A stretch of 64,000 bases of DNA from an uncultured Campylobacterales bacterium (GTDB lineage Bacteria; Campylobacterota; Campylobacteria; Campylobacterales; Arcobacteraceae). The notes under the pieces were generated by a model. That model saw only the letters and a program-made list of their open reading frames with translations, did not search any database and was not told the DNA's origin. This document shows, one piece after another, positions 6,127 to 36,091 of the stretch (position 1 is the first letter of the stretch; each line of letters opens with the position of its first letter). The DNA lies in assembly GCA_947494995.1 (NCBI GenBank), contig CANLWY010000009.1, positions 15,945 to 79,944 on the forward strand, in the 5' to 3' direction. The translations under genes were made by a program, and so were the position numbers.

Positions 6127-6456
6127 ATGAATATTGAGATAGAAGATATAGAAAACAATGTAATTCAAAAACTAAAAACAATTAAAGATTTAGAGTTACC
6201 AATAAGTATATATGATTTAGGACTAATTTATAATACAGAAGTTGAAATAAAAGAAGAGGGTGTAAATGTAAATATTGAAACTACAGCAATAAATTCACGA
6301 TGTAATAGTACACTATCTTTTATTGAAGAGATTAAAACTCAAATAAAGAGTATCTCAGAGGTTGATGAATGTATTGTAAAGTTTGTATATTCTCCAAAGT
6401 GGGAAGTATCTATGATAACTCAAAAAGGTTTAGATCAGCTAAGAAGTGCTTATTAA
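6127..6456 (+). CDS. DUF59 / MIP18-family Fe-S cluster assembly-related protein
   Basis: 109 aa. ...LELPISIYDLGLIYN...VNIETTAINSRC...YSPKWEVSMITQKG matches the DUF59 pattern (DLGLIY, single Cys, P-W). Confidence 0.7.
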   Translation: MNIEIEDIENNVIQKLKTIKDLELPISIYDLGLIYNTEVEIKEEGVNVNIETTAINSRCNSTLSFIEEIKTQIKSISEVDECIVKFVYSPKWEVSMITQKGLDQLRSAY

Positions 6457-20408: not shown

Positions 20409-21971
20409 ATGGGTGAAGAAAACAAAAAAAGATTAGAACAACAGCTTTGGAACATAGCAAATGAACTTAGAGGAAAAATGGATGCAGATGATTTTAGAGA
20501 TTATATTCTAGGTTTTATTTTCTATAAGTATCTTTCTGAAAAGATGGAAAACTATGCAAATGCTGAACTAGAAGAAGATAACTTAAGATACACGCAATTA
20601 GATGAAAAAGACTCATACCACCAAGAACTACTAGAAGCTTTAAAAGAGTACTCTATAGAGTCACTTGGATTTTTTCTAAAACCAAATGAACTTTTCTCAC
20701 AAGTAGCCCTTAGAGGAAATAGCGATACAAACAATTTTATTTTAGATGACTTAACAGAAATACTAAGACATATAGAGTCATCAACTATGGGAAGTGAGAG
20801 TGAAGAGGATTTTGAACATCTTTTTTCTGATTTGGATTTAAGCTCACCAAAACTTGGACGAAGTGAAGAGCAGAAAAACACTCTTATCTCAAAAGTACTT
20901 TATCACTTAGACAATATTGACTTTGAACTAAAAAATCACGACAGAGATGTACTAGGTGATGCCTATGAGTATCTAATAGCACAGTTTGCAGCGGGAGCTG
21001 GTAAAAAAGCAGGGGAGTTTTATACTCCTCAACAAGTATCAAAAATCTTAGCTCAAATAGTAACTTTAGGAAAAGATAAATTAAAATCAGTATATGACCC
21101 AACTTGTGGTTCTGGTTCTCTACTTCTTAGAGTTGCAAAAGAGGTAAAAGATGTAGCAGATTTTTATGGACAAGAGAGAAACCCAACTACTTATAACCTT
21201 GCTCGTATGAATATGATTATGCATGATGTTCACTATAGAAAGTTTGATATCAAGCAAGAAGACACCCTAGAACACCCACAACATATAGACAAAAAGTTTG
21301 AAGCAATAGTTGCAAACCCTCCATTTTCAGCCCAATGGTCAGCAAATCCACTTCACCTAAGTGATGATAGATTTTCTCAATACGGAAAACTAGCTCCAAA
21401 AACAAAAGCAGACTTTGCTTTTGTACAGCATATGATACACCACCTTGATGATATGGGAACTATGGCTTTAGTACTTCCCCATGGAGTACTTTTCAGAGGT
21501 GCAGCAGAAGGACACATAAGAAAATACCTAATCGAAGATAGAAACTATTTAGACGCTGTTATAGGTTTACCTGCAAATATCTTTTATGGTACTTCTATTC
21601 CTACTTGTATTTTAGTATTTAAAAAGTGCAGAGAATCAAGTGATGAGGTACTTTTTATAGACTCTTCAAAACATTTTGAGAAAGTAAAAAATCAAAATGT
21701 TTTAAGAGATGAAGATATAGAAAAAATAGTATCTACTTATAAAGGAAGAATTCAAGAAGATAAATACTCTTTCAAAGTAAGTCTAAAACAGATAAAAGAA
21801 AATGACTATAATCTAAATATCCCAAGATATGTAGATACTTTTGAAGAAGAAGAGCCAATAAATATTGATGAGGTAAGCTCTAAGCTAAAACAGCTAGACT
21901 TAGACATGAAAACTACAGATAAAACAATACAAAGCTTTTGTGATGAGCTTGGTATTAAAACACCCTTTTAA
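20409..21971 (+). CDS. hsdM: type I restriction-modification system, DNA methyltransferase subunit
   Basis: 520 aa with the N-terminal HsdM_N pattern LWNIANELRG. GEFYTPQQV, the AdoMet motif DPTCGSGSLL and the catalytic NPPFS are present. Confidence 0.93.
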   Translation: MGEENKKRLEQQLWNIANELRGKMDADDFRDYILGFIFYKYLSEKMENYANAELEEDNLRYTQLDEKDSYHQELLEALKEYSIESLGFFLKPNELFSQVALRGNSDTNNFILDDLTEILRHIESSTMGSESEEDFEHLFSDLDLSSPKLGRSEEQKNTLISKVLYHLDNIDFELKNHDRDVLGDAYEYLIAQFAAGAGKKAGEFYTPQQVSKILAQIVTLGKDKLKSVYDPTCGSGSLLLRVAKEVKDVADFYGQERNPTTYNLARMNMIMHDVHYRKFDIKQEDTLEHPQHIDKKFEAIVANPPFSAQWSANPLHLSDDRFSQYGKLAPKTKADFAFVQHMIHHLDDMGTMALVLPHGVLFRGAAEGHIRKYLIEDRNYLDAVIGLPANIFYGTSIPTCILVFKKCRESSDEVLFIDSSKHFEKVKNQNVLRDEDIEKIVSTYKGRIQEDKYSFKVSLKQIKENDYNLNIPRYVDTFEEEEPINIDEVSSKLKQLDLDMKTTDKTIQSFCDELGIKTPF

Positions 21972-21980
21972 GAGTAAGCT

Positions 21981-23219
21981 ATGAGTAAAAATATGAAAGT
22001 CCCACAGCTTAGATTTAAAGAATTTTCGGGTGAGTGGGAAGAGAAAACTATAAAATCAATGACTTCATTGTTAAAAGATGGTTCACATGGTACACATAAG
22101 GATTTTCCAGAAAGTGATTATTTATTACTTAGTGCAAAAAATATAATAAATGACAAAATAGAAATATATGATAATGATAGAAGAATATCGAAAGAGGATT
22201 ATCATCAAATTTATAAGAATTATTCTTTAAAAAATGGAGATATTATTTTAACAATAGTTGGAACTATTGGACGTACAGCAATTGTGAACAATTTACATAA
22301 GGTTGCATTTCAAAGAAGTGTTGCTTTTTTTAGATTTGATAATTATAATAGTAATTATATATTTCAATTGTTTCATACCAAAAATTTTGTAAATGAATTA
22401 GAAAAAAGAAAAGTAGTATCTGCTCAACCAGGAATATATTTAGGAGATTTATCTAAAATAAAACTAAATATCCCTTCAAAACAAGAGCAAGAAAAAATTG
22501 CCTCTTTTTTATCTTCTCTTGATACAAAAATAGAACAACTAACAAAAAAAGCAAAGTTACTTAGTGAATATAAAAAAGGCACAATGCAAAAGATATTTTC
22601 ACAAGAGATAAGATTCTCCCCCAAGGGGACTTCTTCGCAAGCTCAGGGCGAAGATGAAAATGGAAAAAATTATCCTAATTGGGAAGAGGAAGAACTTGGA
22701 AATTTAATATCAATTATTTCTAAAAAATTCAATCCTAAAACAAATTGTGAAATTAAAAAATGTATTGAACTTGAAAACCTTTCTCAAGGAACTGGACAAT
22801 TACTTGATTATGTTTATTCAAATGAACAAGAAAGTATTAAAAATAGTTTTGAGAAAAGTCAAATATTATTTGGAAAGTTAAGACCTTATTTAAAAAAGTT
22901 TTGGAAAGCAAATTTTGATGGTGTTTGTTCAAGTGAAATTTGGGTTCTTTCAAGTATAAAGGTATTAAATGAGTATCTTTTATATTTAATACAAACTAAA
23001 AAATTTAATGATATTGCAAATGTATCTAGTGGCTCAAAAATGCCAAGATCAGATTGGAAGTATATGTCAGTAATTCCATTTAAATATCCCTCAAAAGAAG
23101 AACAAACAAAAATAGCAAACTTCCTATCCTCAATTGACACAAAAATTGAACAAAACCAAAAAGCCTTAGAAAAAACAAAAGAGTTTAAAAAAGCATTATT
23201 ACAACAGATGTTTGTGTAA
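21981..23219 (+). CDS. hsdS: type I restriction-modification system, specificity subunit
   Basis: 412 aa with two target-recognition halves. Each ends in a conserved helix: EQEKIASFLSSLDTKIEQL... and EQTKIANFLSSIDTKIEQN... Confidence 0.9.
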   Translation: MSKNMKVPQLRFKEFSGEWEEKTIKSMTSLLKDGSHGTHKDFPESDYLLLSAKNIINDKIEIYDNDRRISKEDYHQIYKNYSLKNGDIILTIVGTIGRTAIVNNLHKVAFQRSVAFFRFDNYNSNYIFQLFHTKNFVNELEKRKVVSAQPGIYLGDLSKIKLNIPSKQEQEKIASFLSSLDTKIEQLTKKAKLLSEYKKGTMQKIFSQEIRFSPKGTSSQAQGEDENGKNYPNWEEEELGNLISIISKKFNPKTNCEIKKCIELENLSQGTGQLLDYVYSNEQESIKNSFEKSQILFGKLRPYLKKFWKANFDGVCSSEIWVLSSIKVLNEYLLYLIQTKKFNDIANVSSGSKMPRSDWKYMSVIPFKYPSKEEQTKIANFLSSIDTKIEQNQKALEKTKEFKKALLQQMFV

Positions 23220-23231
23220 ATATAAATATTG

Positions 23232-23240
23232 TGTTATAAT
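23232..23240 (+). promoter_or_regulatory. extended -10 box (TGtTATAAT) in the hsdS-antitoxin gap
   Basis: TG at 23232-23233 and TATAAT at 23235-23240. It is followed by the direct repeat ATTACGgaaaATTACG (23250-23265) and then ATG 23277. Confidence 0.35.
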
Positions 23241-23276
23241 GCTTGAAATATTACGGAAAATTACGAGGGAAATATT

Positions 23277-23558
23277 ATGGTAACATACACAGCAGATGAA
23301 TTAATACCATCATCAGAATTAGCTAAGAAGTTTGGAACTTACCTTTCTCAAATCAAAGACCACTCTGTAGAGAAACTTGCAGTTTTAAAAAACAACAAAG
23401 TCGAAGCAGTACTTATTTCAAAAGATGAGTATGAAGTATTAACAGAAGCATTAAAGCAAGTAGAAGCACAGCAGATTATGACATCTATTCAAAATGGTTT
23501 AGATGATGTAAAAAAAGCTAAAACAAAACCAATAGAAGATTTATGGGATGAACTGTGA
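23277..23558 (+). CDS. Phd/YefM-type antitoxin
   Basis: 93 aa. ...SELAKKFGTYLSQIKDHSVEKLAVLKNNKVEAVLISKDEYEVL matches the Phd/YefM N-terminal fold pattern. Its stop overlaps the toxin start (GTGA). Confidence 0.7.
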   Translation: MVTYTADELIPSSELAKKFGTYLSQIKDHSVEKLAVLKNNKVEAVLISKDEYEVLTEALKQVEAQQIMTSIQNGLDDVKKAKTKPIEDLWDEL

Positions 23559-23881
23559 CTATAGAGTATAGTGACAACTTTTTCAAAGAAGCCAAAAAAC
23601 TATCAAAAAAATACAAGCTTTTAAAGTCAGATTTACAAGAAGCAGTAGAAGAGATAGAAGAGAAAAGAGACTTAGGTGTATCACTAGGCTTTAACCTTTT
23701 TAAAAAAAGAGTTCCAAACTCTTCTATTCCAACTGGTAAAAGTGGAGGTTTTAGAGTTATTATTTATGAGAAAATTGAAGATAAAATAGTTTTAATATCA
23801 ATATATTCAAAAACTCAAAAAGATACTTTAAGTGATGAAGAGTTAAAAGCTATTTTAAAAGAGTATATGGAAACAAAATGA
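23555..23881 (+). CDS. RelE/ParE-superfamily toxin (HigB / PF06296-like)
   Basis: 108 aa. GKSGGFRVIIYEKIEDKIVLISIYSKTQKDTLSDEELKAILKEY is the typical C-terminal signature. The GTG start at 23555 overlaps the antitoxin TGA, and its own TGA overlaps the hsdR ATG. Confidence 0.7.
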   Translation: MTIEYSDNFFKEAKKLSKKYKLLKSDLQEAVEEIEEKRDLGVSLGFNLFKKRVPNSSIPTGKSGGFRVIIYEKIEDKIVLISIYSKTQKDTLSDEELKAILKEYMETK

Positions 23882-26796
23882 GCACCCAAAGCGAAGCAGT
23901 ATTAGAAGAGAAACTTATCAAGCAGTTAGCCTCACAAGGCTTTGAAAATGTTAATATCAAAGATGAAAAAGCCTTAGAAACAAATCTAAAAACACAGTTA
24001 GAAAAACATAATAAAAAAACTTTTAGCAATACTGAATTTAAAAAGATACTAAACCATCTAGGCAAAGGCAATGTCTTTGAAAGAGCCAAGCTTTTAAGAG
24101 ATAAGTTTGTACTACAAAAAGATGATGGAACAAAAGAGTATATAGAGTTTTTAGACCAAGAACACTGGTGTCAAAATCTTTTTCAAGTTACAAATCAAAT
24201 CAGTATAAATGGAACATACAAAAACAGATACGATGTAACACTTCTAATAAATGGACTTCCTTTAGTTCAAATTGAGCTAAAAAGAAGAGGCTTAGAGCTA
24301 AAAGAAGCCTTCAATCAAATCAATCGTTATCAAAAACACTCATATAGTGCAAATCATGGGCTTTTTAATTTTGTACAAATCTTTATTATTAGTAATGGAG
24401 TAAATACCAAGTATTACGCAAATAATAAAAAGCAAACTTTTAAACAAACTTTCTTTTGGGCTAATAGTGAAAATAAAAATATAACAAACCTAGAAGAGTT
24501 TACAACAAACTTTTTAGAAAAATGTCATATTTCTAAAATGATATGTAAGTATATAGTATTAAACCAAACAGATAAAATACTTATGGTTCTAAGACCTTAT
24601 CAGTTTTATGCAGTAGAAGCGATAGTTGATAAAGTGCAAACTTCTGATAAAAACGGATATATCTGGCATACAACAGGAAGTGGTAAAACACTAACTTCAT
24701 TTAAAACTGCTCAAGTTTTGATGAAACTACCAAAAGTAGACAAAGTAGTCTTTGTAGTAGATAGAAAAGATTTAGACTATCAAACAACAAAAGAGTTTAA
24801 CAGCTTTAGCCAAGGAAGTGTTGATGGTACAGATAATACTAAAGCTCTGGTAAAACAGTTTGGTGATGATACAAAACTAATAGTAACAACTATACAAAAA
24901 CTAAACACAGCAATCAAAAAAGTAAGATATAGTGAAACTATGGAAAAACTAAAAGATAAACATATTGTTTTTATCTTTGATGAGTGCCATAGAAGCCAGT
25001 TTGGAGAAACTCACCTAAATATAAATAAATATTTCCAAAACAACCAAATGATTGGGTTTACAGGAACACCAATCTTTAAAGATAATTCAAGTTCAAACAG
25101 ACTAGGAAGAAGAACAACAGCAGACCTTTTTGGAGAAAGACTCCATAGATATGTAATAACAGATGCAATTTCAGATGAAAATGTATTGAAGTTTTCAGTT
25201 GAGTACGTGGGAAGATATAAAGAGAAAAAAGATAGTGCTACATATATAGATATGGAAGTAGAAGATATAGATACAAAAGAGTTACTACAAAGTGATGATA
25301 GAGTAGAAAAAATTGTTGATTATATCTTATCAAATCATGATAGAAAGACACACAGCAAAACATATACAGCTATGATGACAGTAAGTTCTGTAGAGATGCT
25401 TATAAAATATTATGAAGCTTTTAGAGCAAAACAGCACGATCTAAAAATAGCTACTATTTTCTCATATAGTGCAAATGAAGAAGACAAAGATGCAAATGGT
25501 CTATATGAGAGCGATGGCGCACATATAGATGAAATGCATATAAACAAACATAGCCGTGAAAAGCTAGATGAGTATATAGGTGATTATAATAAAATCTTTG
25601 GAACAAAACATAGTACAAAAGATTCTCAAAGCTTTTATAACTACTACAACGACATCTCAAAAACAGTAAAAAGAGGTGAAATAGATATATTACTTGTTGT
25701 AAATATGTTTTTAACAGGATTTGATAGTAAAAAACTAAATACTTTGTATGTGGATAAAAATTTAAAGTATCATGGACTTATACAAGCCTTTTCTAGAACA
25801 AATAGAATACTTGATGATAGAAAATCCCAAGGAAATATTATCTGTTTTAGAAACCTAAAAACTGCAACAGATGATGCTATTGCTATGTTTTCTAAAAAAG
25901 AAGCAAAAGATGAAATACTTATGCAAGCTTACGAAGAGTATGTAATAAAATTCAATGAAGGTTTCACAAAACTTTTAAATATAGCTCCAAGTGTAAGCTC
26001 TGTAGATATGCTTATAGATGAAGATGACAAGTTAGAGTTTATCAAAGCTTTTAGGGAGTTGATAAGATTACTTAATATTCTAAAAGGCTTTAGTGATTTT
26101 AAATGGTCTGATTTATCTATGAGTGAGCAACTTTTTGAGGACTATAAGTCAAAATATCTTGATATGTATGATAGGATAAAAGCAGACAGACAAGAAGGAA
26201 TGGAAAAGGTATCTATTTTAGAAGATGTGGATTTTGAGTTAGAACTTATCCATAAAGATGAGATAAATGTAAGTTATATCTTAAGGTTACTTGCAAGATA
26301 TAAAGATTCAGATGAAGAAGAACAAAAGAAACAAAAAGAAAATATTTTAAATATCCTTAGTAATAACCCACAGTTAAGAAGTAAAAAAGAGCTTATTGAA
26401 AAATTTATCAATGAAAATCTTATGAGCATAAATGAAGACAATATAGAAGATGAGTTTGAAAAGTATTGGGAAGAACAAAAAGATAGTGCTTATGAAAAAC
26501 TATGTAAAGAAGAAGACTTAAATTGCAAAGAGGTAAGAAAACTAGTAGATAAATATATCTATGAACAAAAACTACCTCTAAAAGATGATATAGCTCAAAC
26601 CTTGAAGTTCAAACCTAAGCTTTTAGAGAAAAAAAGAATTATTCCAAGAGTCCTAGATAAAATAGTTAGTTTTGTTGATGTCTTTTATGATGATGTAGAT
26701 ATTGTAACAACTATGCCTAAAGAGGAGCTACTTTTTCCAAATGTCTATGAAGAAGAGTTATTAGTAGCTAGTCCAAAACCAGTATATAATTCTTAA
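23878..26796 (+). CDS. hsdR: type I restriction endonuclease, R subunit
   Basis: 972 aa with an N-terminal nuclease region (RYDVTLLINGLPLVQIELKR). The helicase motifs are HTTGSGKT, DECHRS, GFTGTP and FLTGFDS...QAFSRTNR. Confidence 0.93.
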   Translation: MSTQSEAVLEEKLIKQLASQGFENVNIKDEKALETNLKTQLEKHNKKTFSNTEFKKILNHLGKGNVFERAKLLRDKFVLQKDDGTKEYIEFLDQEHWCQNLFQVTNQISINGTYKNRYDVTLLINGLPLVQIELKRRGLELKEAFNQINRYQKHSYSANHGLFNFVQIFIISNGVNTKYYANNKKQTFKQTFFWANSENKNITNLEEFTTNFLEKCHISKMICKYIVLNQTDKILMVLRPYQFYAVEAIVDKVQTSDKNGYIWHTTGSGKTLTSFKTAQVLMKLPKVDKVVFVVDRKDLDYQTTKEFNSFSQGSVDGTDNTKALVKQFGDDTKLIVTTIQKLNTAIKKVRYSETMEKLKDKHIVFIFDECHRSQFGETHLNINKYFQNNQMIGFTGTPIFKDNSSSNRLGRRTTADLFGERLHRYVITDAISDENVLKFSVEYVGRYKEKKDSATYIDMEVEDIDTKELLQSDDRVEKIVDYILSNHDRKTHSKTYTAMMTVSSVEMLIKYYEAFRAKQHDLKIATIFSYSANEEDKDANGLYESDGAHIDEMHINKHSREKLDEYIGDYNKIFGTKHSTKDSQSFYNYYNDISKTVKRGEIDILLVVNMFLTGFDSKKLNTLYVDKNLKYHGLIQAFSRTNRILDDRKSQGNIICFRNLKTATDDAIAMFSKKEAKDEILMQAYEEYVIKFNEGFTKLLNIAPSVSSVDMLIDEDDKLEFIKAFRELIRLLNILKGFSDFKWSDLSMSEQLFEDYKSKYLDMYDRIKADRQEGMEKVSILEDVDFELELIHKDEINVSYILRLLARYKDSDEEEQKKQKENILNILSNNPQLRSKKELIEKFINENLMSINEDNIEDEFEKYWEEQKDSAYEKLCKEEDLNCKEVRKLVDKYIYEQKLPLKDDIAQTLKFKPKLLEKKRIIPRVLDKIVSFVDVFYDDVDIVTTMPKEELLFPNVYEEELLVASPKPVYNS

Positions 26797-27293
26797 ATAG
26801 TTTCGTTAAACTCTTTTATCTCTTTTAGTTTATTAATAAAGTTATTAAGTAAAGGTTTTGGTGCATATTGTAGCAAAGAGATAAGCTCTTCTTCGAGTTT
26901 TTCTTTTTTATTATATGTACTTGTAGGTTCTTTAATAATTATACTTTCAGAGTATTTTAGATTGAATTTATTTTTAATAATTTCAATCTCTTCAGGAGTA
27001 GAAGTTTTAAGAATATTTTGAAAAAATCTTTTTCTACTTCTTTCATCATTTGTAAATAGTTCTTGTTCTGTGATTTGTAAAACTTCTGCAATATAAGGGA
27101 TAAGTTCTATTTTGATTGAGATTGAGCCATTTAGATATTTGTATATAGTTTTTTCACTAGGTATTTCTCCTGTACTATTTAATCTTGGTTCTAAGTCTCT
27201 TAATCTTTTTGCAAATTCTCTTTTTGTTAAATTATTTTCTTTTATTAAACTGTTTATTCTTTCAAATATTTCCATCAAGTCCCTTATTGCCAT
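26793..27293 (-). CDS. XRE-family HTH protein with an unassigned C-terminal half
   Basis: 166 aa. LTKREFAKRLRDLEP...SEKTIYKYLNGSISIKIELIPYIAEVLQITEQELF is an XRE-like HTH. Its stop codon overlaps the hsdR stop (convergent). Confidence 0.6.
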   Translation of the reverse strand: MAIRDLMEIFERINSLIKENNLTKREFAKRLRDLEPRLNSTGEIPSEKTIYKYLNGSISIKIELIPYIAEVLQITEQELFTNDERSRKRFFQNILKTSTPEEIEIIKNKFNLKYSESIIIKEPTSTYNKKEKLEEELISLLQYAPKPLLNNFINKLKEIKEFNETI

Positions 27294-28543: not shown

Positions 28544-29224
28544 ATGAGTGAAATACATGAGTTTTTCAACAGACAGATAAAACTATGGGGTGAGGAGACT
28601 CAAGACTCTTTACAAGACAAAAGTGTTGCTATTATAGGAAGTGGAGGATTAGGATGTACTCTTGGTATTGCCTTAGGAGCTTCTGGTATTGGAAACTTTA
28701 CTTTTGTTGATTTTGATGAGGTAGGTGTTCACAATATCCATAGACAAATTGGATTTAAAGTTGGAGATGATGGAAAATATAAAGCTGATGTTTTAAAAGA
28801 TTTAATTGAAGCTAGATGTCCATATACAAAAGTTACAGCATATAAAGAGTCTTTTCAAGAGTTTGCAAAAAGAGGACTTACTTTTGATTTAATTATTGAT
28901 GCAACAGATAACTTACCAACAAGAGCTGCTATAAATGAATATTGTATTGAAAATAATCAGCCTTGGATTTATGGTTCAGTAGAAGAGTTTCATGGTCAAG
29001 TTTGTTTCTTTGAAAAAGCATCATATGAAGCAGTATTTCAAATCAATGATAGAAAACCAAATGGTATTGCTTGTCCAATTGTTATGCACATTGGTTCTTT
29101 ACAAGCAAACTTAGCTATTAGACATTTATCTGGACTTCCTGTTAAAAAAGATGTTTTATACTATCTATCATTTGATCAAGATGGTGTTTTACAAAACCAA
29201 AAATTTAATTTACCTACAAACTAA
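28544..29224 (+). CDS. ThiF/MoeB/HesA-family E1-like adenylyltransferase
   Basis: 226 aa. FNRQIKLWGEE, the nucleotide loop IIGSGGLGC, and FVDFDEVGVHNIHRQ. Confidence 0.8.
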   Translation: MSEIHEFFNRQIKLWGEETQDSLQDKSVAIIGSGGLGCTLGIALGASGIGNFTFVDFDEVGVHNIHRQIGFKVGDDGKYKADVLKDLIEARCPYTKVTAYKESFQEFAKRGLTFDLIIDATDNLPTRAAINEYCIENNQPWIYGSVEEFHGQVCFFEKASYEAVFQINDRKPNGIACPIVMHIGSLQANLAIRHLSGLPVKKDVLYYLSFDQDGVLQNQKFNLPTN

Positions 29225-29225
29225 T

Positions 29226-29249
29226 TAAGTATCCTTTTTAGGATACTTA
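29226..29249 (+). terminator. hairpin after the ThiF-like gene
   Basis: TAAGTATCC-ttttta-GGATACTTA starts right after the stop at 29224. A T-rich run begins about 10 nt downstream. Confidence 0.45.
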
Positions 29250-29364
29250 GTTCTTACTTTTTAATACTAACTTTCATATTCATTTTCAAACTTAAAAACA
29301 GCTTTATTTTTTATCTTAATAGGAGTATAATTTTGATAAGGAAATAAATTATAAGGAGGAGAAA

Positions 29365-30264
29365 ATGAAATGGGAAAAAGTTAGAAAGCTATACTTATTT
29401 AACTTATGTATTGTTGTTGCTTGTTTTTTTATTACAGGTTGTGGACCAAGTACAAAATCTAATACTTATGTTAAACCTAAACCTATTGATGCCCCTGAAG
29501 GAAAAGTTTCTTTTAAGAATACTTCAGAGTATAAAAAACTGTTAAGAGATAGGGATAATCATGAAAAATGGCTTGATAATTTGGAAAAACAGAGATATGC
29601 TTTAGATTATAAAAGAACTCAACCAATGGTTAAGTTTCATGGAGTAGCTAAAGGTGCAGGTGCTAGTGGAATGGTTAATGCAGAAGGTATGAGTAATGAT
29701 CCTTTAGGTGATTTAAAAAGAGATCAATGGCAATATGAATCTGTTATTCATCAAATAAATGTTTTAACAAATGATCTAAATAAAATCAACAATAAGATAC
29801 ATAGTTTAAATACAGAATCATATAAATCTTGTTTTCCAAAAGATACTAAAATATTAACAAGTGAAAATAAGTTTAAAAAAATTTCTGATATAAAAATAGG
29901 AGATGAAGTTCTTGTTTATGATATTGCAAATGATAATGTCTCAAAATCAATTGTAAAAGAAAAATATGTTGATGAAAACAATCATGTCTATAAAGTTAAT
30001 AATTCAATTGAAGCAACTGCCTATGAACGATTTTTAACAAAAAAAGGTTGGAAAAAAATAAGTGAGTTAAAAAAAGGTGATTTAATTTTTAATGGTAATA
30101 GCTTTGAAAAAGTTTTTAATGTTTTAAAAATGGAAAAAGATTTGATTGTTTACAATTTACATATTGAATCAAGTCATAACTTTTTTGTATCAAAAGATGG
30201 AGAATCTTCATATTTAGTTCATAATACCGGTGGAGGTAGTGGTGGAAGTGGAGGAGGAAAATGA
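29365..30264 (+). CDS. lipoprotein with a C-terminal Hint (intein-like / BIL-type) autoprocessing domain
   Basis: Strong RBS AAGGAGGAG and lipobox FITG-C (Cys26). Residues 156-287 (nt 29830-30225) read CFPKDTKILT...VYNLHIESSHNFFVSKDGESSYLVHN, followed by a Thr and then only GGGSGGSGGGK. Confidence 0.7.
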   Translation: MKWEKVRKLYLFNLCIVVACFFITGCGPSTKSNTYVKPKPIDAPEGKVSFKNTSEYKKLLRDRDNHEKWLDNLEKQRYALDYKRTQPMVKFHGVAKGAGASGMVNAEGMSNDPLGDLKRDQWQYESVIHQINVLTNDLNKINNKIHSLNTESYKSCFPKDTKILTSENKFKKISDIKIGDEVLVYDIANDNVSKSIVKEKYVDENNHVYKVNNSIEATAYERFLTKKGWKKISELKKGDLIFNGNSFEKVFNVLKMEKDLIVYNLHIESSHNFFVSKDGESSYLVHNTGGGSGGSGGGK

Positions 30265-30980
30265 AAACTTTTAAATATATCTATATTGTCATAGTTGTTT
30301 TATTATTTACTGGTTGTGTTAAGGATTTAAAAAGTGTTTATTTTAATGAAGAAGGAGATAGAAATTATAAGGAAGGAAGCTATTTAAAGTCTGTTGAATC
30401 ATATAAAAAAGCAGCATTAAATGGAAATGCTTATGCTTACTATAGATTGTATGAAATATATAAATATGGTAAATATGGGGTTAAAAGAGATATTAACTTA
30501 TCAAATGAAATGATAAAGAAAGCTGTTGAATTGGGTGATTATCGTGCAGAATACATTTATTCTTTAAGATTTTTATATTCTTCAAACCCAAATATTGAAA
30601 AAGCAATTAATTTATTGAAATCTTCTGCAAAAAAAGAATATCCTTATGCATATTTAGAACTTGGACATCTTTATTTATATGGATACGGTGTTGAACAGGA
30701 TAAAGAAAGAGCTATAGGATATTATAGATTAGCTAATTCCTTTGGTTTAAAAACACCAGATGTAAATAGTGTAAAAACAAAAGTACTTACAAAAAAGGAA
30801 ATAATTAGAAAAATTCAAAGTAATCTTAAAAAATTAGGTTTTTATAATTCTAGTATCGATGGTATAACAGGTCCAATGACAAGAAAAGCAATATCATCTT
30901 TTCAAAGATATTATGATTATCCTATTGATACCAAAGCTAGTCAAAAAGTTTTGGAACAAATAAAAAGGGAATTAAGATAG
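30261..30980 (+). CDS. lipoprotein with Sel1-like repeats and a C-terminal peptidoglycan-binding (PG_binding_1-like) domain
   Basis: Lipobox LFTG-C. Sel1-type repeats include AALNGNAYAYYRLYEIYKYGKYGVKRD and EYPYAYLELGHLYLYGYGVEQDKERAIGYY. The C-terminus is LGFYNSSIDGITGPMTRKAISSFQRYYDYP. The ATG overlaps the upstream TGA (ATGA). Confidence 0.75.
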   Translation: MKTFKYIYIVIVVLLFTGCVKDLKSVYFNEEGDRNYKEGSYLKSVESYKKAALNGNAYAYYRLYEIYKYGKYGVKRDINLSNEMIKKAVELGDYRAEYIYSLRFLYSSNPNIEKAINLLKSSAKKEYPYAYLELGHLYLYGYGVEQDKERAIGYYRLANSFGLKTPDVNSVKTKVLTKKEIIRKIQSNLKKLGFYNSSIDGITGPMTRKAISSFQRYYDYPIDTKASQKVLEQIKRELR

Positions 30981-31007
30981 TTAGGAGAATTCTCCTAACT
31001 ATTTTTT
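30980..31007 (+). terminator. rho-independent terminator closing the lipoprotein pair
   Basis: GTTAGGAGAATTCTCCTAAC is a perfect palindrome and is followed by TATTTTTT. Confidence 0.7.
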
Positions 31008-31073
31008 AAGCACTTTTTAGATACACTATCCAAATTTTTAACTACATAATTGAAACTATTACGGGGAACATAA

Positions 31074-34000: not shown

Positions 34001-34313
34001 TGCTACTGGTGGAACTCATAAAGCTATTACTGATGCAGGTATTGAGTGTGAAAAAGTACTTAAAATTTCTGAAGGTAGACCAAATATTACGGATGCAATC
34101 ACTAATGGTGAAATTGCATTAGCATTTAATACTTCAGATGGTAAAGAATCATCTAAATCAGATGGTCAAGATATCAGAAGAGCAGTATTAAAAGAGAATG
34201 TTCCTTATGGTACTACTGCTGCAACTGCATTAGCTTGTATTGAAGGAATGAAAGCATTAAGACAAAAAGATGGATTAGGTGTTAAGTCTATCCAAGAATT
34301 TTTAAATGACTAA
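31074..34313 (+). CDS. carB: carbamoyl-phosphate synthase large subunit
   Basis: 1079 aa. [24 protein letters not shown] is duplicated as [24 protein letters not shown], giving two ATP-grasp halves. The C-terminal MGS-like domain is also present. Confidence 0.97.
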
Positions 34314-34756
34314 TGGACAAAAATAAAGTATATTTAGTTCAAACTGATACTACAGTTGGTTTCTCATCGTCAAACGGTGAGAAACTATCTTCAATAAAAC
34401 AAAGACCCCTTTCTCAAAAAATACTTCAAACGGTAGATTCTTTTAAAACTTTAAGAGCAAATACAAGAGTTCCAAAAGAGTTTAGAAAAAAAGTTAGAAA
34501 TTCAAAAAGAACAACTTTTATTTATCCAAATACTAAATCTTTTAGAGTAATTGATAAAGATGATGCTTTTTATCCTTTTATAAATAAGTTTAAACAACAG
34601 TATTCTACTTCTGCAAATTTGACAGGGAATAAATATGATGAAAGTTTTGCAAAAGAGAATAGTGATGTTATTGTTTATTCAAAAGATGGCTTTAATGAAA
34701 CTCTATCTTCTTCTATATATAAACTTACTAATAAAAAAATAAAAAAAATAAGATAA
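34313..34756 (+). CDS. YrdC/Sua5-domain protein (short form)
   Basis: 147 aa. VYLVQTDTTVGFSS...TTFIYPN...STSANLTGNKYDE resembles the YrdC/YciO fold. The ATG overlaps the carB TAA. Confidence 0.6.
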   Translation: MDKNKVYLVQTDTTVGFSSSNGEKLSSIKQRPLSQKILQTVDSFKTLRANTRVPKEFRKKVRNSKRTTFIYPNTKSFRVIDKDDAFYPFINKFKQQYSTSANLTGNKYDESFAKENSDVIVYSKDGFNETLSSSIYKLTNKKIKKIR

Positions 34757-34789: not shown

Positions 34790-36091
34790 ATGTTTCTACA
34801 AAGAGAAAAAGAATTACAAGAGTTAGAAAAAAGTTATAATAGTGCAACTTCATCTTTAAAGTTTGTATATGGACCTAAAAATGTTGGGAAAACAACTTTA
34901 TCACAACAATATATAAAAGATAAAGAAAGTATCTATTTTGCAAATCATGAAATGATTCCTTCTCAGTTTTTTACTAATATGGCAAATACTATTAGTGAAT
35001 ACTTTCATAATGTAAAAACTGTTGGTATTCCATTTAAATCTTTTGAGAATATTTTAGAGTTTTTAGATAAACAAAAAATAGATAAAAAACTAGTTTTGGT
35101 TTTTGATGATTTTCAAAATGTATTAAAAGTAGATAAACATAGTTTAGAAAATTTGTTAAAATTTTGGAAGAAAAAATTAAAAAATAAAAATCTTCAAATA
35201 ATTATAGTAAGTTCACTTCTTTTTAGTGATAAAGATAGTGAGATTGAATCTTGTGCATCTGTATTAAAGCTTGGATATTTAGATTTTATTTCAATAAAAG
35301 AGTTTTTCCCTGAAATGAATAGATTAGACCAACTTTATGTATACTCTTTATTAGGAACAACTCCTACAAACTTGAAGTTTTATAATTCAAAAATTGAGTT
35401 TACAGAGAACATATTTAATCTATTTTTATCTGCAAATTCATATCTTTTTGATTATGGGATTAGAGTTTTGAAAAGTGAAATTAGTGATATAGGAACTTAT
35501 TCTTCAATTCTTCATGCAATATCAAAAGAGAATACAAAAATAGGAGATATTGCAAGTTTTTTAGATGTAAAGTCAACTTATCTTACAAGGTATCTTCAAA
35601 AGCTTATAGATATGATGATTATAAAAAAAGTTGTTCCAATTGGAGAAGATAAAAAATCTTCAAAATTTGGAAGGTATGAAATATTAGACAATGCTTTAAA
35701 GTTTTGGTTCTCTTATATATATCCAAACTTGACAGCTCTTCAACAAAATGACGTAAAAGATGTAAGTAAACAGATTCAAGATGAGTTTATTAGTAAAACA
35801 GTTTTTTTATCTTATAAAAAATGTATAAAAGAATTTATTCATAAAAGTCAAGAAAATATTTTTGGATATACACCAAATGAGATTGGAAGTTGGTGGGATA
35901 ATCAGAATAATAATATAGATTTACTTGCTTTTGATAGAAAGATTGTGACTTTTGTACAGATACTTTGGGAAGAAAAAGATATGGCAAAAATATCTTATGG
36001 AAAGCTAAAATCCACATCTGAAAAGTTTGAAACATCTCTAGAAAAAAAATATATAATTGTTTCAAAAGATACTTTTTTTAATATGAAATAA
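34790..36091 (+). CDS. AAA-type ATPase with a DUF234 / winged-helix C-terminal region
   Basis: 433 aa. Walker A is GPKNVGKTTL and Walker B is LVLVFDDFQ. A later wHTH-like segment reads IGDIASFLDVKSTYLTRYLQKLIDMMIIKKV, followed by a DUF234-like tail. Confidence 0.7.
   Translation: MFLQREKELQELEKSYNSATSSLKFVYGPKNVGKTTLSQQYIKDKESIYFANHEMIPSQFFTNMANTISEYFHNVKTVGIPFKSFENILEFLDKQKIDKKLVLVFDDFQNVLKVDKHSLENLLKFWKKKLKNKNLQIIIVSSLLFSDKDSEIESCASVLKLGYLDFISIKEFFPEMNRLDQLYVYSLLGTTPTNLKFYNSKIEFTENIFNLFLSANSYLFDYGIRVLKSEISDIGTYSSILHAISKENTKIGDIASFLDVKSTYLTRYLQKLIDMMIIKKVVPIGEDKKSSKFGRYEILDNALKFWFSYIYPNLTALQQNDVKDVSKQIQDEFISKTVFLSYKKCIKEFIHKSQENIFGYTPNEIGSWWDNQNNNIDLLAFDRKIVTFVQILWEEKDMAKISYGKLKSTSEKFETSLEKKYIIVSKDTFFNMK

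Follow-up and report, generated by a model that had tools for sequence, protein, structure and literature searches.

A Hint protein with a conserved Gly-Lys tail and a peptidoglycan-binding partner form a putative two-gene bacterial envelope module

To our knowledge, inteins and intein-like domains occur almost only in cytoplasmic enzymes, as selfish inserts, or in polymorphic toxins, where they are presumed to be release devices. The Hint fold is also found C-terminally in Hedgehog, a secreted protein whose passenger is modified at its C terminus through a thioester; this autoprocessing involves no terminal Asn or +1 chemistry and requires a sterol-recognition region after the Hint domain. 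A related domain, BIL2 of Tetrahymena BUBL (6Y75/6TMM), carries out an ATP-independent ligation of its N-extein to the ε-amine of a lysine. Type A bacterial intein-like (BIL) domains are defined by a C-terminal His-Asn and by where they lie, in the variable parts of bacterial proteins that are not conserved and often secreted (PMC4031507, PMC7765530), and BIL domains by definition lack a +1 nucleophile (PMC4031507). Splicing by an N-S shift, transfer and Asn cyclization is known for both type A BIL domains and inteins, and type A BIL domains give mostly cleavage rather than splicing in vitro (PMC4031507).

An earlier note on a 64-kb window, by which we mean the whole stretch of DNA analysed here, had recognized a Hint- or BIL-type module by its Cys1, its block F and its His-Asn end in the first of two adjacent open reading frames (ORF1 and ORF2; Table 1), and had proposed a search with Hint profiles and an alignment to A-type BIL domains. 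Both bear the reading out. ORF1 matches PT-HINT (PF07591) over residues 168–287 with an E value of 2.7e-10, and its 41.1 bits clear the gathering score of 27.7. Five other Hint or intein Pfam families score below threshold, with the Pfam Hint family PF01079 at 25.9 where 29.7 is required. All 45 of 45 homologues carry PF07591. Among PDB sequences the best match of ORF1 is 2LWY, a bacterial intein-like domain from C. thermocellum, and a profile of the family matches the DnaB mini-intein, BUBL BIL2 and 2LWY with E values of 1e-8 to 1e-7. In the AF2 model, pLDDT exceeds 90 across residues 156–287, and the best Foldseek matches of this module are BIL2 6Y75 (E 1e-10, TMt 0.76), 2LWY and mini-inteins (TMt range 0.75–0.83), so that the fold is closest to BIL domains. 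The assignment of a Hint module to ORF1 is confirmed far beyond chance.

The module begins at the junction SYKS/CFPKDTKILT and terminates with YLVHN, and its block F (VYNLHIESSHNFFV) spans residues 262–275. C156, H286 and N287, as well as N264 and H271, are invariant in 46 relatives, and the first three are at least 90% conserved in a wider alignment of 98 sequences. The block B position does read TAYE rather than TxxH, as had been noted (residues 218–221): E221 aligns with, and replaces, the Ssp DnaB intein's catalytic His, and the wider alignment has Glu here in 44 sequences and His in 52. The Hint module also has a family-specific motif, N205/H207/N212. A second Hint-like match, to a loose regular expression, lies at position 6447 of the window.

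Table 1. Features of the two-gene locus, in window coordinates
Feature	Position	Strand	Basis and details
Terminator-like hairpin, 13-bp stem and T-run, after the upstream ThiF-family gene	29223..29252	+	Consensus terminator scan; ThiF Pfam match
Shine-Dalgarno sequence AAGGAGGAG of ORF1, strong	29353..29361	+	Read from sequence; ATG at 29365, 3 nt downstream
ORF1, predicted exported Hint-GlyLys protein, 299 aa	29365..30264 (including stop, 30262-30264)	+	Sequence
ORF1 signal peptide, lipobox FITG/C, Cys26 at 29440-29442	29365..29442	+	Sequence; predicted helix 2-25
ORF1 variable N-domain, residues 27-155	29443..29829	+	AF2 and identity comparison
Hint module, residues 156-287: Cys156 (codon begins 29830), T218/E221, VYN264, H271, H286-N287 (Asn287 at 30223-30225)	29830..30225	+	Pfam, AF2, Foldseek
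C-extein tail TGGGSGGSGGGK: +1 Thr288, Gly/Ser leash, terminal Lys299	30226..30261	+	Family census
Dual-use stretch GGAGGAGGAAAATG	30250..30263	+	Gly-Gly-Gly-Lys codons also serve ORF2 as Shine-Dalgarno sequence and start codon
ORF2, secreted partner, 239 aa, lipobox LFTG/C (Cys19)	30261..30980 (ATG 30261-30263)	+	Sequence, Pfam
Intrinsic terminator, 14-bp hairpin overlapping the ORF2 stop codon, then T-run	30974..31008	+	Folding

The part of ORF1 upstream of Hint is far more variable, with a pairwise identity across the family of 19%, against 55% for the Hint module. Neither Pfam nor NCBIfam gives a match for this N-domain, in agreement with the earlier view that it has no recognizable family. 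The AF2 model orders it as a disordered linker, a helix (residues 50–93), a loop and a second helix (residues 113–149), followed by an E-S-x-K-S junction motif that is conserved. In other family members the same position is occupied by a FecR domain or by coiled-coil versions. These comparisons suggest that the N-domain is a fast-evolving, variable passenger, here of two helices. The description of ORF1 as a lipoprotein holds for the protein in the window, but not for the family, of which only about half have a lipobox, the remaining members having LGS instead; the presence of a lipobox is correlated between ORF1-type and ORF2-type proteins.

Just 12 residues follow Asn287, and the earlier note had concluded that there was no host protein to splice back together. 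A census of the family argues against such a pointless tail. A C-terminal Lys was found in 150 of 153 proteins (98%), on tails of 1–20 residues that are about 80% Gly, and 138 of these 150 (92%) have Ser, Thr or Cys at +1, so that all three class-1 splicing nucleophiles are kept. The tails of some members are as short as ‘K’ alone (P0127), or read ‘GGGGK’, ‘YGGGK’ or ‘HGGGG..K’, and in related tandem-Hint proteins, which have oligo-Gly linkers, the +1 residue after 34 of 64 Hint ends is Lys. In all Campylobacterota loci the tail codons also provide ORF2 with its Shine-Dalgarno sequence and start (GGAGGTGGAAAATGA). That the tail is merely a by-product of this ribosome-binding site was rejected as the sole cause, given that the terminal Lys codon is either AAA or AAG and that the stops TGA, TAA and TAG are all used, including at loci where the genes do not overlap. 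Desulfobacterota loci keep the Gly-Lys tail despite intergenic gaps of 20–50 nt. These data argue for selection on the tail at the protein level, and it is the second most conserved part of the ORF1 protein.

The rest of the locus is laid out largely as first described. The ORF1 stop and the ORF2 start overlap in ATGA at 30261–30264, and the product of ORF2 is, as proposed, a second lipoprotein by its lipobox, with a Sel1 α-solenoid (approximately residues 19–160), a linker and a C-terminal PG_binding_1 domain (residues 181–233, nt 30801–30959); both Pfam matches are above threshold, at 45 bits for Sel1 and 44.8 bits for PG_binding_1. No catalytic domain is found among the Pfam domains of ORF2-type partners. 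The hairpin terminator placed at 30980–31007 is in essence the feature we recovered by folding, with a stem at 30974–31005, −17.5 kcal/mol and a z score of −5.6; it is absent from the consensus terminator scan. The hairpin that follows the upstream ThiF-family gene is the 5′ boundary of the two-gene unit.

We found the two-gene module in Campylobacterota, Desulfobacterota and Azonexus, where Azonexus hydrophilus ZS02 is a culturable carrier, and the co-occurrence survey that had been suggested revealed tight coupling from both directions. The partner gene lies directly downstream of the Hint gene in 26 of 36 genome loci, and the Hint gene lies directly upstream in 3 of 3 partner-anchored contexts and in 7 of 8 metagenome loci. 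Flanking genes vary between loci and, in chromosomal contexts, are housekeeping genes; neighbour clustering over the 36 loci found no recurring third gene such as a transpeptidase or protease. A regular expression for the YkuD motif found none in the 64-kb window, which at that span is weak evidence. In a Desulfatibacillum subgroup the Hint-GlyLys cassette is kept beside another kind of partner, one that gives no PG-binding match. In related pairs, dN/dS is 0.1–0.3 for both genes, consistent with purifying selection on each. ORF1 and ORF2 thus appear to constitute an autonomous, conserved two-gene envelope module.

The ORF1 protein resembles several of the described systems, each in part. With type A BIL domains (C. 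thermocellum BIL4, 2LWY) it has in common Cys1, a VYN-type block F, the C-terminal His-Asn and a poorly conserved host, predicted to be exported, rather than a conserved enzyme; it differs in the C-flanking nucleophile (Thr288, and Ser, Thr or Cys in most Lys-ending members), the conserved Gly leash of 1–20 residues ending in Lys, the fixed partner gene and the block-B Glu. Class 1 mini-inteins such as that of Ssp DnaB (1MI8) also have Cys1, a terminal His-Asn and a +1 Thr, the block B sequences are remarkably alike (IKATAYERFLTkDGWKk against IKATANHRFLTIDGWKR), and the one Hint-less allele, described below, may be a further likeness. The class 1 pattern of an N-terminal Cys or Ser, His-Asn and a +1 Cys, Ser or Thr is found in ORF1 as Cys156, His286-Asn287 and Thr288, whereas its T218-A-Y-E221 departs from the T-x-x-H of block B. 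Unlike these inteins, ORF1 has a fast-evolving host with a signal peptide, a Hint module more conserved than its exteins, a C-extein of 12 residues, no homing endonuclease and a coupled partner gene. BUBL is eukaryotic and cytoplasmic with ubiquitin-like exteins and lacks a signal peptide, a Gly leash and a partner that binds peptidoglycan, whereas the N-extein of ORF1 is helical, not ubiquitin-like, in the AF2 model and its conserved Lys lies in its own C-extein, where attack by that Lys would be hypothetical. The Hedgehog domain (1AT0) is a weaker Foldseek match (E 7e-5), and ORF1 differs from it in its conserved His-Asn and tail and in having no recognition region; a Hedgehog-type reaction could proceed without Asn287 and without the tail. 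In function only, there is an analogy with Braun's lipoprotein (Lpp), whose C-terminal Lys is linked covalently to mDAP by an L,D-transpeptidase, in that the window's protein is a lipoprotein with a helical body, a C-terminal Lys and an operon link to peptidoglycan binding. In contrast to Lpp, ORF1 has an intervening Hint module and belongs to a family with a lipobox in only about half of its members, and a cross-link from its Lys to peptidoglycan would be hypothetical; Pfam and NCBIfam give no Lpp-family match for ORF1. We know of no Lpp homologue in the Campylobacterota and Desulfobacterota lineages.

A partner-anchored metagenome scan yielded one natural Hint-less allele, the only one known, which was assembled identically in three datasets. 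It lies beside a partner gene, and in its product the signal peptide, N-domain and junction motif of the family run straight into a Gly-rich tail, the Lys codon having turned into a stop; in its partner, PG_binding_1 has decayed below threshold while Sel1 is intact. A search with an N-domain-only profile for further such alleles returned a single match, itself a family member, the N-domain being too divergent. The Hint-less allele can be read as a gene-encoded equivalent of a spliced product. The joint loss of Hint, Lys and PG binding would fit better with all three acting in one reaction.

Our preferred reading, which we hold tentatively, is that splicing joins the N-domain to the Gly-Lys tail outside the cytoplasm and that ORF2 docks the resulting complex on peptidoglycan. 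ORF1 would be exported by Sec and, in this organism, lipidated at Cys26. In the periplasm, the Hint module would excise itself by an N-S acyl shift at Ser155/Cys156, transfer to Thr288 and cyclization of Asn287; where a relative lacks the +1 nucleophile, as a minority do, joining would have to proceed through an amine, either the Lys ε-amine or the freed α-amine. The outcome of this ATP-independent splicing would be a membrane-anchored helical protein with a Gly leash ending in Lys, plus free Hint. ORF2 would act as a dedicated scaffold, its Sel1 solenoid binding the ORF1 product and its PG_binding_1 domain docking the complex on peptidoglycan, with the terminal Lys as the functional end, a docking point or a cross-linking point. 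Because the tail and its +1 nucleophile are conserved and a Hint-less allele exists, splicing onto the tail is no less likely than the Hedgehog-like outcome proposed earlier. Several points weigh against it. Type A BIL domains tend to cleave in vitro; with Glu at block B, as in this protein and roughly half of the family, the N-S shift may be slower; ‘K’-only tails cannot be explained by classical splicing; the terminal Lys is better kept than the +1 nucleophile; and in the single Hint-less allele the Lys codon is a stop and the partner's PG_binding_1 has dropped below threshold. Moreover, a cell could encode the spliced product directly, yet Hint is much better conserved than the N-domain, which suggests that its chemistry does more than make the N-domain with its tail.

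A rival reading, close to the transfer proposed in the earlier note and in our view unlikely, is that Hint passes the thioester on the N-domain C terminus to an external amine held by the partner, giving a self-catalysed covalent wall tether without an L,D-transpeptidase. The most plausible amine would be that of mDAP in a peptidoglycan stem to which PG_binding_1 binds, with a Lys of the partner as the alternative. A partner that binds peptidoglycan and has no catalytic domain, the lack of any transpeptidase gene recurring near the module, the variable passenger with its coiled-coil and FecR versions, and the decay of PG_binding_1 beside an intact Sel1 in the partner of the Hint-less allele are all consistent with such a transfer. 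So is the chemistry, as ATP is absent from the periplasm and a Hint thioester is a source of activated acyl groups, and the best structural match, BIL2 of BUBL, attaches its N-extein to Lys of other proteins. However, transfer would require none of Asn287, His286, the +1 nucleophile and the tail, yet all are conserved, the Hint module is followed by no adduct-recognition region, and the partner in the Desulfatibacillum subgroup has no PG-binding match. Combining the Hint thioester, the nearly invariant Lys at the C terminus and PG_binding_1 of the partner in one reaction, as a periplasmic ATP-independent ligase that tethers a membrane-anchored passenger covalently to peptidoglycan, or that builds a Lys isopeptide resembling a wall cross-link, is a self-sortase or Lpp-like scheme that draws mainly on the co-loss in the single Hint-less allele and that we regard as quite unlikely. 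It is still less probable that the terminal Lys, looping back on its Gly leash, attacks the thioester with its ε-amine in BUBL-like fashion, so that after Asn cyclization the N-domain and tail are joined by an isopeptide bond and the Lys α-carboxylate and tail N terminus are free. This would account for a Lys better conserved than the +1 nucleophile, for tails such as ‘K’ and ‘GGGGK’, for Lys at +1 in the tandem-Hint relatives and for the loss of Lys together with Hint, and BIL2 makes just such a K(ε)–C-terminal isopeptide; but with Ser, Thr or Cys at +1 in most members, and Thr in the window, attack by a distal Lys should lose out to the classical route.

Cleavage without ligation, the typical behaviour of BIL domains, is rather unlikely as the whole function. 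Here Hint would cut N-terminally, C-terminally or both, as a step of maturation or release, and free the N-domain from Hint, a small Gly-Lys peptide, or both. Type A BIL domains yield mainly cleavage products (PMC4031507), the PT-HINT domains of polymorphic toxins are thought to release the part downstream of them, and the block-B Glu may disfavour coordinated splicing. Yet a conserved terminal Lys on a low-information Gly leash is hard to explain if it is discarded, a ‘K’ tail would free just lysine, the widely kept +1 nucleophile is needed for neither cut, and in the Hint-less allele the tail stays fused to the N-domain. Highly improbable, in our estimate, is that the locus is a remnant of a polymorphic toxin–immunity pair, or that Hint is catalytically silent and used only for binding. 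The pre-toxin Hint family, which occurs in polymorphic toxins (RHS, CdiA, MafB and UmbC), is the best, and sole, Pfam family above threshold for the module, and UmbC (8W20) matches the ORF1 family profile; an Acidobacteriota RHS toxin, L036, with RHS_repeat, Ntox10 and PT-HINT, has HN-C-GGGGG after its Hint domain and then a long C-terminal region; plasmid matches are to Hint domains of polymorphic toxins only; and some periplasmic Sel1-repeat proteins, which appear among the low-ranking fold matches, are T6SS immunity proteins (PA5086-88). ORF1, by contrast, gives no RHS or toxin Pfam match and lacks both a trafficking N-terminus of RHS or filamentous type and a C-terminus that varies; its tail is conserved rather than polymorphic, and architecture and tail are kept across phyla under purifying selection. 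Its neighbours are housekeeping genes, the partner is conserved, predicted to be secreted and PG-binding rather than a cytoplasmic immunity protein, and invariant catalytic residues speak against a silent Hint. A defence or toxin reading was likewise set aside, as PADLOC returned nothing meaningful and phages gave no match.

If its chemistry is indeed what is selected, the module would offer a natural case of protein splicing or ligation in a periplasm free of ATP, and maybe a new route for tethering envelope proteins in bacteria without Braun's lipoprotein. What sets the family apart is that Hint is the most conserved part of a protein with an export signal, that every splicing nucleophile is kept, and that the sole C-extein is a Gly leash ending in Lys, locked to a PG-binding partner in at least three bacterial phyla; this pattern suggests that the chemistry itself is the selected function. 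Full-text literature searches found no description of the Hint-GlyLys family, which agrees with the earlier statement that no characterized system with this arrangement was known. A compact Hint module of 132 residues with a natural C-extein of one to a dozen residues may also interest protein engineers.

The window has a GC content of 30%, and the closest relatives are Arcobacter and Arcobacteraceae metagenome-assembled genomes. Public sequencing runs, with no RNA runs among them, shared only 6–7% of words and were seawater metagenomes.

Residues 156-287 of the protein encoded by ORF1, the first gene of the pair, are a Hint domain, and this assignment is solid. The Pfam PT-HINT model (PF07591) matched at 41.1 bits against a gathering score of 27.7 (E 2.7e-10), upholding the Hint module that an earlier note had read from the sequence; all of that note's statements about the sequence proved correct on re-reading the window DNA. 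By sequence, the closest PDB entry is the C. thermocellum bacterial intein-like (BIL) domain 2LWY, and a profile of the family matched the Ssp DnaB mini-intein, the Hint domain of Tetrahymena BUBL (BIL2) and 2LWY with E values of 1e-8 to 1e-7. An AlphaFold2 model of ORF1 built from 46 homologues had pLDDT > 90 over residues 156-287, and its top structural matches were BIL2 (6Y75, E 1e-10), 2LWY and mini-inteins, with Hedgehog farther away (E 7e-5); the overall architecture is not Hedgehog-like. In the model, a signal helix and a disordered linker precede two long helices (50-93, 113-149), which are followed by the Hint fold and then by a tail that is disordered. ORF2, the partner gene, encodes the proposed Sel1 repeats and PG_binding_1 domain, each above its Pfam threshold; in its predicted structure, a linker connects an alpha-solenoid over residues 19-160 to a small helical domain. 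Neither the full ORF1 protein nor its N-domain has a model in Pfam or NCBIfam, and full-text searches of a literature library found no paper describing the family.

The pair is bounded at its 5' edge by a terminator-like hairpin 3' of the upstream ThiF-family gene, detected in a terminator scan, and ends in a 14-bp hairpin with a T-run (-17.5 kcal/mol, z -5.6 on folding). At window 30250-30263, the Gly-Gly-Gly-Lys codons of ORF1 (GGAGGAGGAAAA) also provide ORF2 with its Shine-Dalgarno sequence and part of its start codon. Such dual coding, in which the tail codons (GGAGGTGGAAAATGA) are reused for ribosome binding and initiation of the partner, is present in all Campylobacterota loci, and the 4-nt overlap is kept throughout that phylum. 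A type I restriction-modification system lies just upstream (window 20409-26796), and its ORF at 20409-21971 may be the methylase.

Features of the gene pair, its surroundings in the window and related loci (a slash marks a boundary within a motif)
Feature	Position	Size or strand	Sequence or remark
ORF1	29365-30264	299 aa	strong Shine-Dalgarno sequence 5' of start
Lipobox of ORF1			FITG/C26, read from sequence
N-domain/Hint junction of ORF1			SYKS/C156FPKDTKILT, read from sequence
Block B of ORF1	residues 218-221		TAYE
Motif of ORF1	residues 262-275		VYNLHIESSHNFFV
Hint C-terminus of ORF1			YLVH286N287, then TGGGSGGSGGGK, then stop
ORF1 stop/ORF2 start overlap	30261-30264		ATGA
Specificity subunit, type I R-M	21981-23219		Pfam
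R subunit, type I R-M	23878-26796		Pfam
166-aa ORF	26793-27293	minus	no Pfam hit
147-aa ORF	34313-34756		between carB and ATPase_2/DUF234 gene; no Pfam hit
ATPase_2/DUF234-family ATPase gene	34790-36091		downstream of carB; Pfam
Hint-less allele	L049 335-1527; L122 3001-4193; L124		
Tandem-Hint proteins			P0063, P0114, P0146, P0161, P0157, P0103, P0117, P0169, P0095 (alignment A3)

A homology search returned 45 proteins built like ORF1 and 250-340 aa long; when 1.84 billion representatives were searched exhaustively with a profile, 144 matched at E <= 1e-30. The loci belong to Arcobacteraceae, Sulfurospirillum, other Campylobacterales, Desulfobacterales/Desulfobacteraceae and Azonexus. The two genes are co-conserved, as the earlier note had supposed: a Sel1/PG_binding_1 gene lies directly 3' of the Hint gene in 26 of 36 loci and, viewed from the partner, the Hint gene is immediately 5' in 3/3 contexts and in 7/8 metagenome loci. 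Both genes are under purifying selection (dN/dS 0.1-0.3). About half of the family have an LGS motif in which the lipobox Cys is replaced and so are not lipoproteins, and the presence of a lipobox is correlated between Hint protein and partner (both in 13 loci, neither in 8, discordant in 5). One Arcobacteraceae chromosome (OY782822.1; L006 and L009) carries two divergent copies of the whole module, one with a lipobox on both proteins and the other with none on either. The flanks vary by locus (UvrD/ValRS, thioesterase/hydrolase, MFS transporter, ThiF/CarB), and no third recurrent gene was found among the neighbours of the loci. In five Campylobacterota loci (L007-L010, L018), a conserved 136-aa multi-pass membrane protein is encoded directly after the partner gene, ~700-800 nt 3' of the Hint gene stop codon; it is missing in the window, where carB follows ORF2. 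A Desulfatibacillum subgroup (L029, L032-L035) has kept the Hint-GlyLys protein and replaced the Sel1/PG-binding partner; the replacement is a secreted protein of 180-220 aa (…AAADPGGFQGLPWA…) with no Pfam family.

Three features should surprise an intein or cell-envelope specialist: the near-invariant terminal Lys, the conservation pattern and the partner. Pairwise identity is 19% in the N-domain helices and 55% in the Hint, a pattern that is inverted relative to classical inteins. In some members, a FecR domain substitutes for part of the N-domain, which indicates that the passenger part of the cassette is interchangeable. P0077, P0089 and P0106, of ~450 aa, have FecR N-terminal to a coiled-coil region, a layout probably shared by P0045, P0046 and P0058 (loci L013 and L015). 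Given the low identity and the FecR swaps, the N-domain acts as a variable passenger, with Hint and tail as the constant cassette. Invariant positions in the 46-sequence alignment are C156-F-P, N205, H207, Y209, N212, T218, E221-R-F, T225, G228-W, V-Y-N264, H271-N-F-F, L284 and H286-N287. In the Ssp DnaB intein, the residue aligned with E221 is the catalytic His of block B (IKATAYERFLTkDGWKk against IKATANHRFLTIDGWKR); in the wider alignment, 44 sequences have Glu here and 52 have His.

Lys is the last residue in 150 of 153 distinct single-Hint proteins, and 138 of these 150 have Ser, Thr or Cys at +1, the residue right after the Hint Asn. The tail is 1-20 residues long (median 9), with ~80% Gly and 10% Ser. 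Members that depart from the +1 pattern still have the Lys, with tails such as GGGGK, YGGGK, HGGGG..K or just K. Neither the P0127 gene nor that of P0083 lies at a contig end, and the CK tail of P0149 was verified, although this protein is a more remote member and lacks a signal peptide. Because the Lys is encoded by AAA and AAG, all three stop codons are used and the tail is retained in loci without gene overlap, we conclude that it is selected at the protein level.

A natural Hint-less allele was found in metagenome locus L049, where a 154-aa ORF lies directly 5' of a diverged partner. It consists of the family signal peptide (…GVLFLLGS), an N-domain collinear with the family (phmmer E 3.5e-5 against family member P0020 over residues 6-137, for a nominal database of 1e6 sequences) and the junction motif (…AIAEKSNET), followed at once by QNDGNNGGDGGDGGQG and a stop; what is missing is exactly the 132-residue Hint. 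The protein was assembled identically in three independent datasets. In effect, this allele encodes directly what splicing would produce, which speaks for the viability of an N-domain joined to a Gly tail. Its last codons are GGA TAA TGA, compared with GGA AAA TGA in relatives, so the Lys codon has turned into a stop. Its partner keeps Sel1 (48.5 bits), with PG_binding_1 at 20.7 bits, below the threshold of 23; the other eight scanned partners score 44-63 bits. As a pointer only, from a single allele, this suggests that Hint, terminal Lys and peptidoglycan binding are functionally linked.

The central question is what the N-domain ends up joined to. ORF1 has the features of an exported protein, its BIL/PT-HINT-class active site is intact and it retains all three class-1 nucleophile positions; the family has a selected Gly-Lys tail, a dedicated Sel1/PG-binding partner and a Hint-less allele. 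We tentatively favour, at somewhat less than even confidence, splicing of the N-domain onto the Gly-Lys tail after export, with the partner docking on the wall. The Hint would catalyse an N-S acyl shift at Ser155/Cys156, the N-domain would be passed to Thr288, and the Hint would be released by cyclisation of Asn287, giving a membrane-anchored helical N-domain with a flexible Gly leash and a terminal Lys. Sel1 would then bind this product and PG_binding_1 would dock on the wall. In inteins and type A BILs, each of these splicing steps has support from known chemistry (PMC4031507). The reading is weakest in explaining why a Hint is there, because a gene for N-domain plus tail would yield the spliced product without one.

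That the Hint is so strongly conserved implies some use for its thioester, and other fates can be considered. Transfer to an amine of the wall or of the partner is rather unlikely; BIL2 conjugates its N-extein to other proteins without ATP (PMC8616854). Regulated cleavage alone is likewise unlikely, and formation of an isopeptide with a Lys ε-amine is improbable. It is very improbable that the gene is a toxin remnant or its Hint silent, because a toxin domain is lacking, the tail is conserved, the gene contexts are housekeeping and the catalytic residues do not vary.

By sequence and fold, the family belongs to the PT-HINT/BIL branch of the HINT superfamily. Its +1 nucleophile sets it apart from canonical type A BILs. 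It differs from canonical class 1 inteins in having Glu in place of the block-B His, an exported host of low conservation, and exteins that are less conserved than the Hint. It is also not one of the polymorphic toxins. Hint relatives do occur in these (L036, Leptospira and Nostoc plasmids, and UmbC 8W20). What appears to be new is a cassette of Hint plus Gly-n-Lys, intein-like and putatively autoprocessing, that has its own dedicated wall-binding partner and is predicted to work in the cell envelope. Apart from the toxins, the nearest relatives outside the family are proteins in which Hint domains follow directly on one another in arrays of 3-4 or more (up to 11 HMM stretches), joined by linkers of only K-G-G-(G-G) (…LVHN/KGG/CFLPGT…); several also match Pfam AXH. 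Lys stands at +1 in 34 of their 64 Hint ends, and none has Cys, Ser or Thr there; their linkers share the Lys and oligo-Gly composition of the family tail in reversed order. A Cys plus oligo-Gly linker after a Hint is also found in toxins such as L036, and a toxin of this type is a possible evolutionary source of the Hint-Gly-Lys cassette. The L036 gene (1588-4263, Acidobacteriota), unlike the other genome loci, encodes an RHS-repeat/Ntox10 polymorphic toxin whose PT-HINT ends in HN/CGGGGGDYK…, followed by a further C-terminal region.
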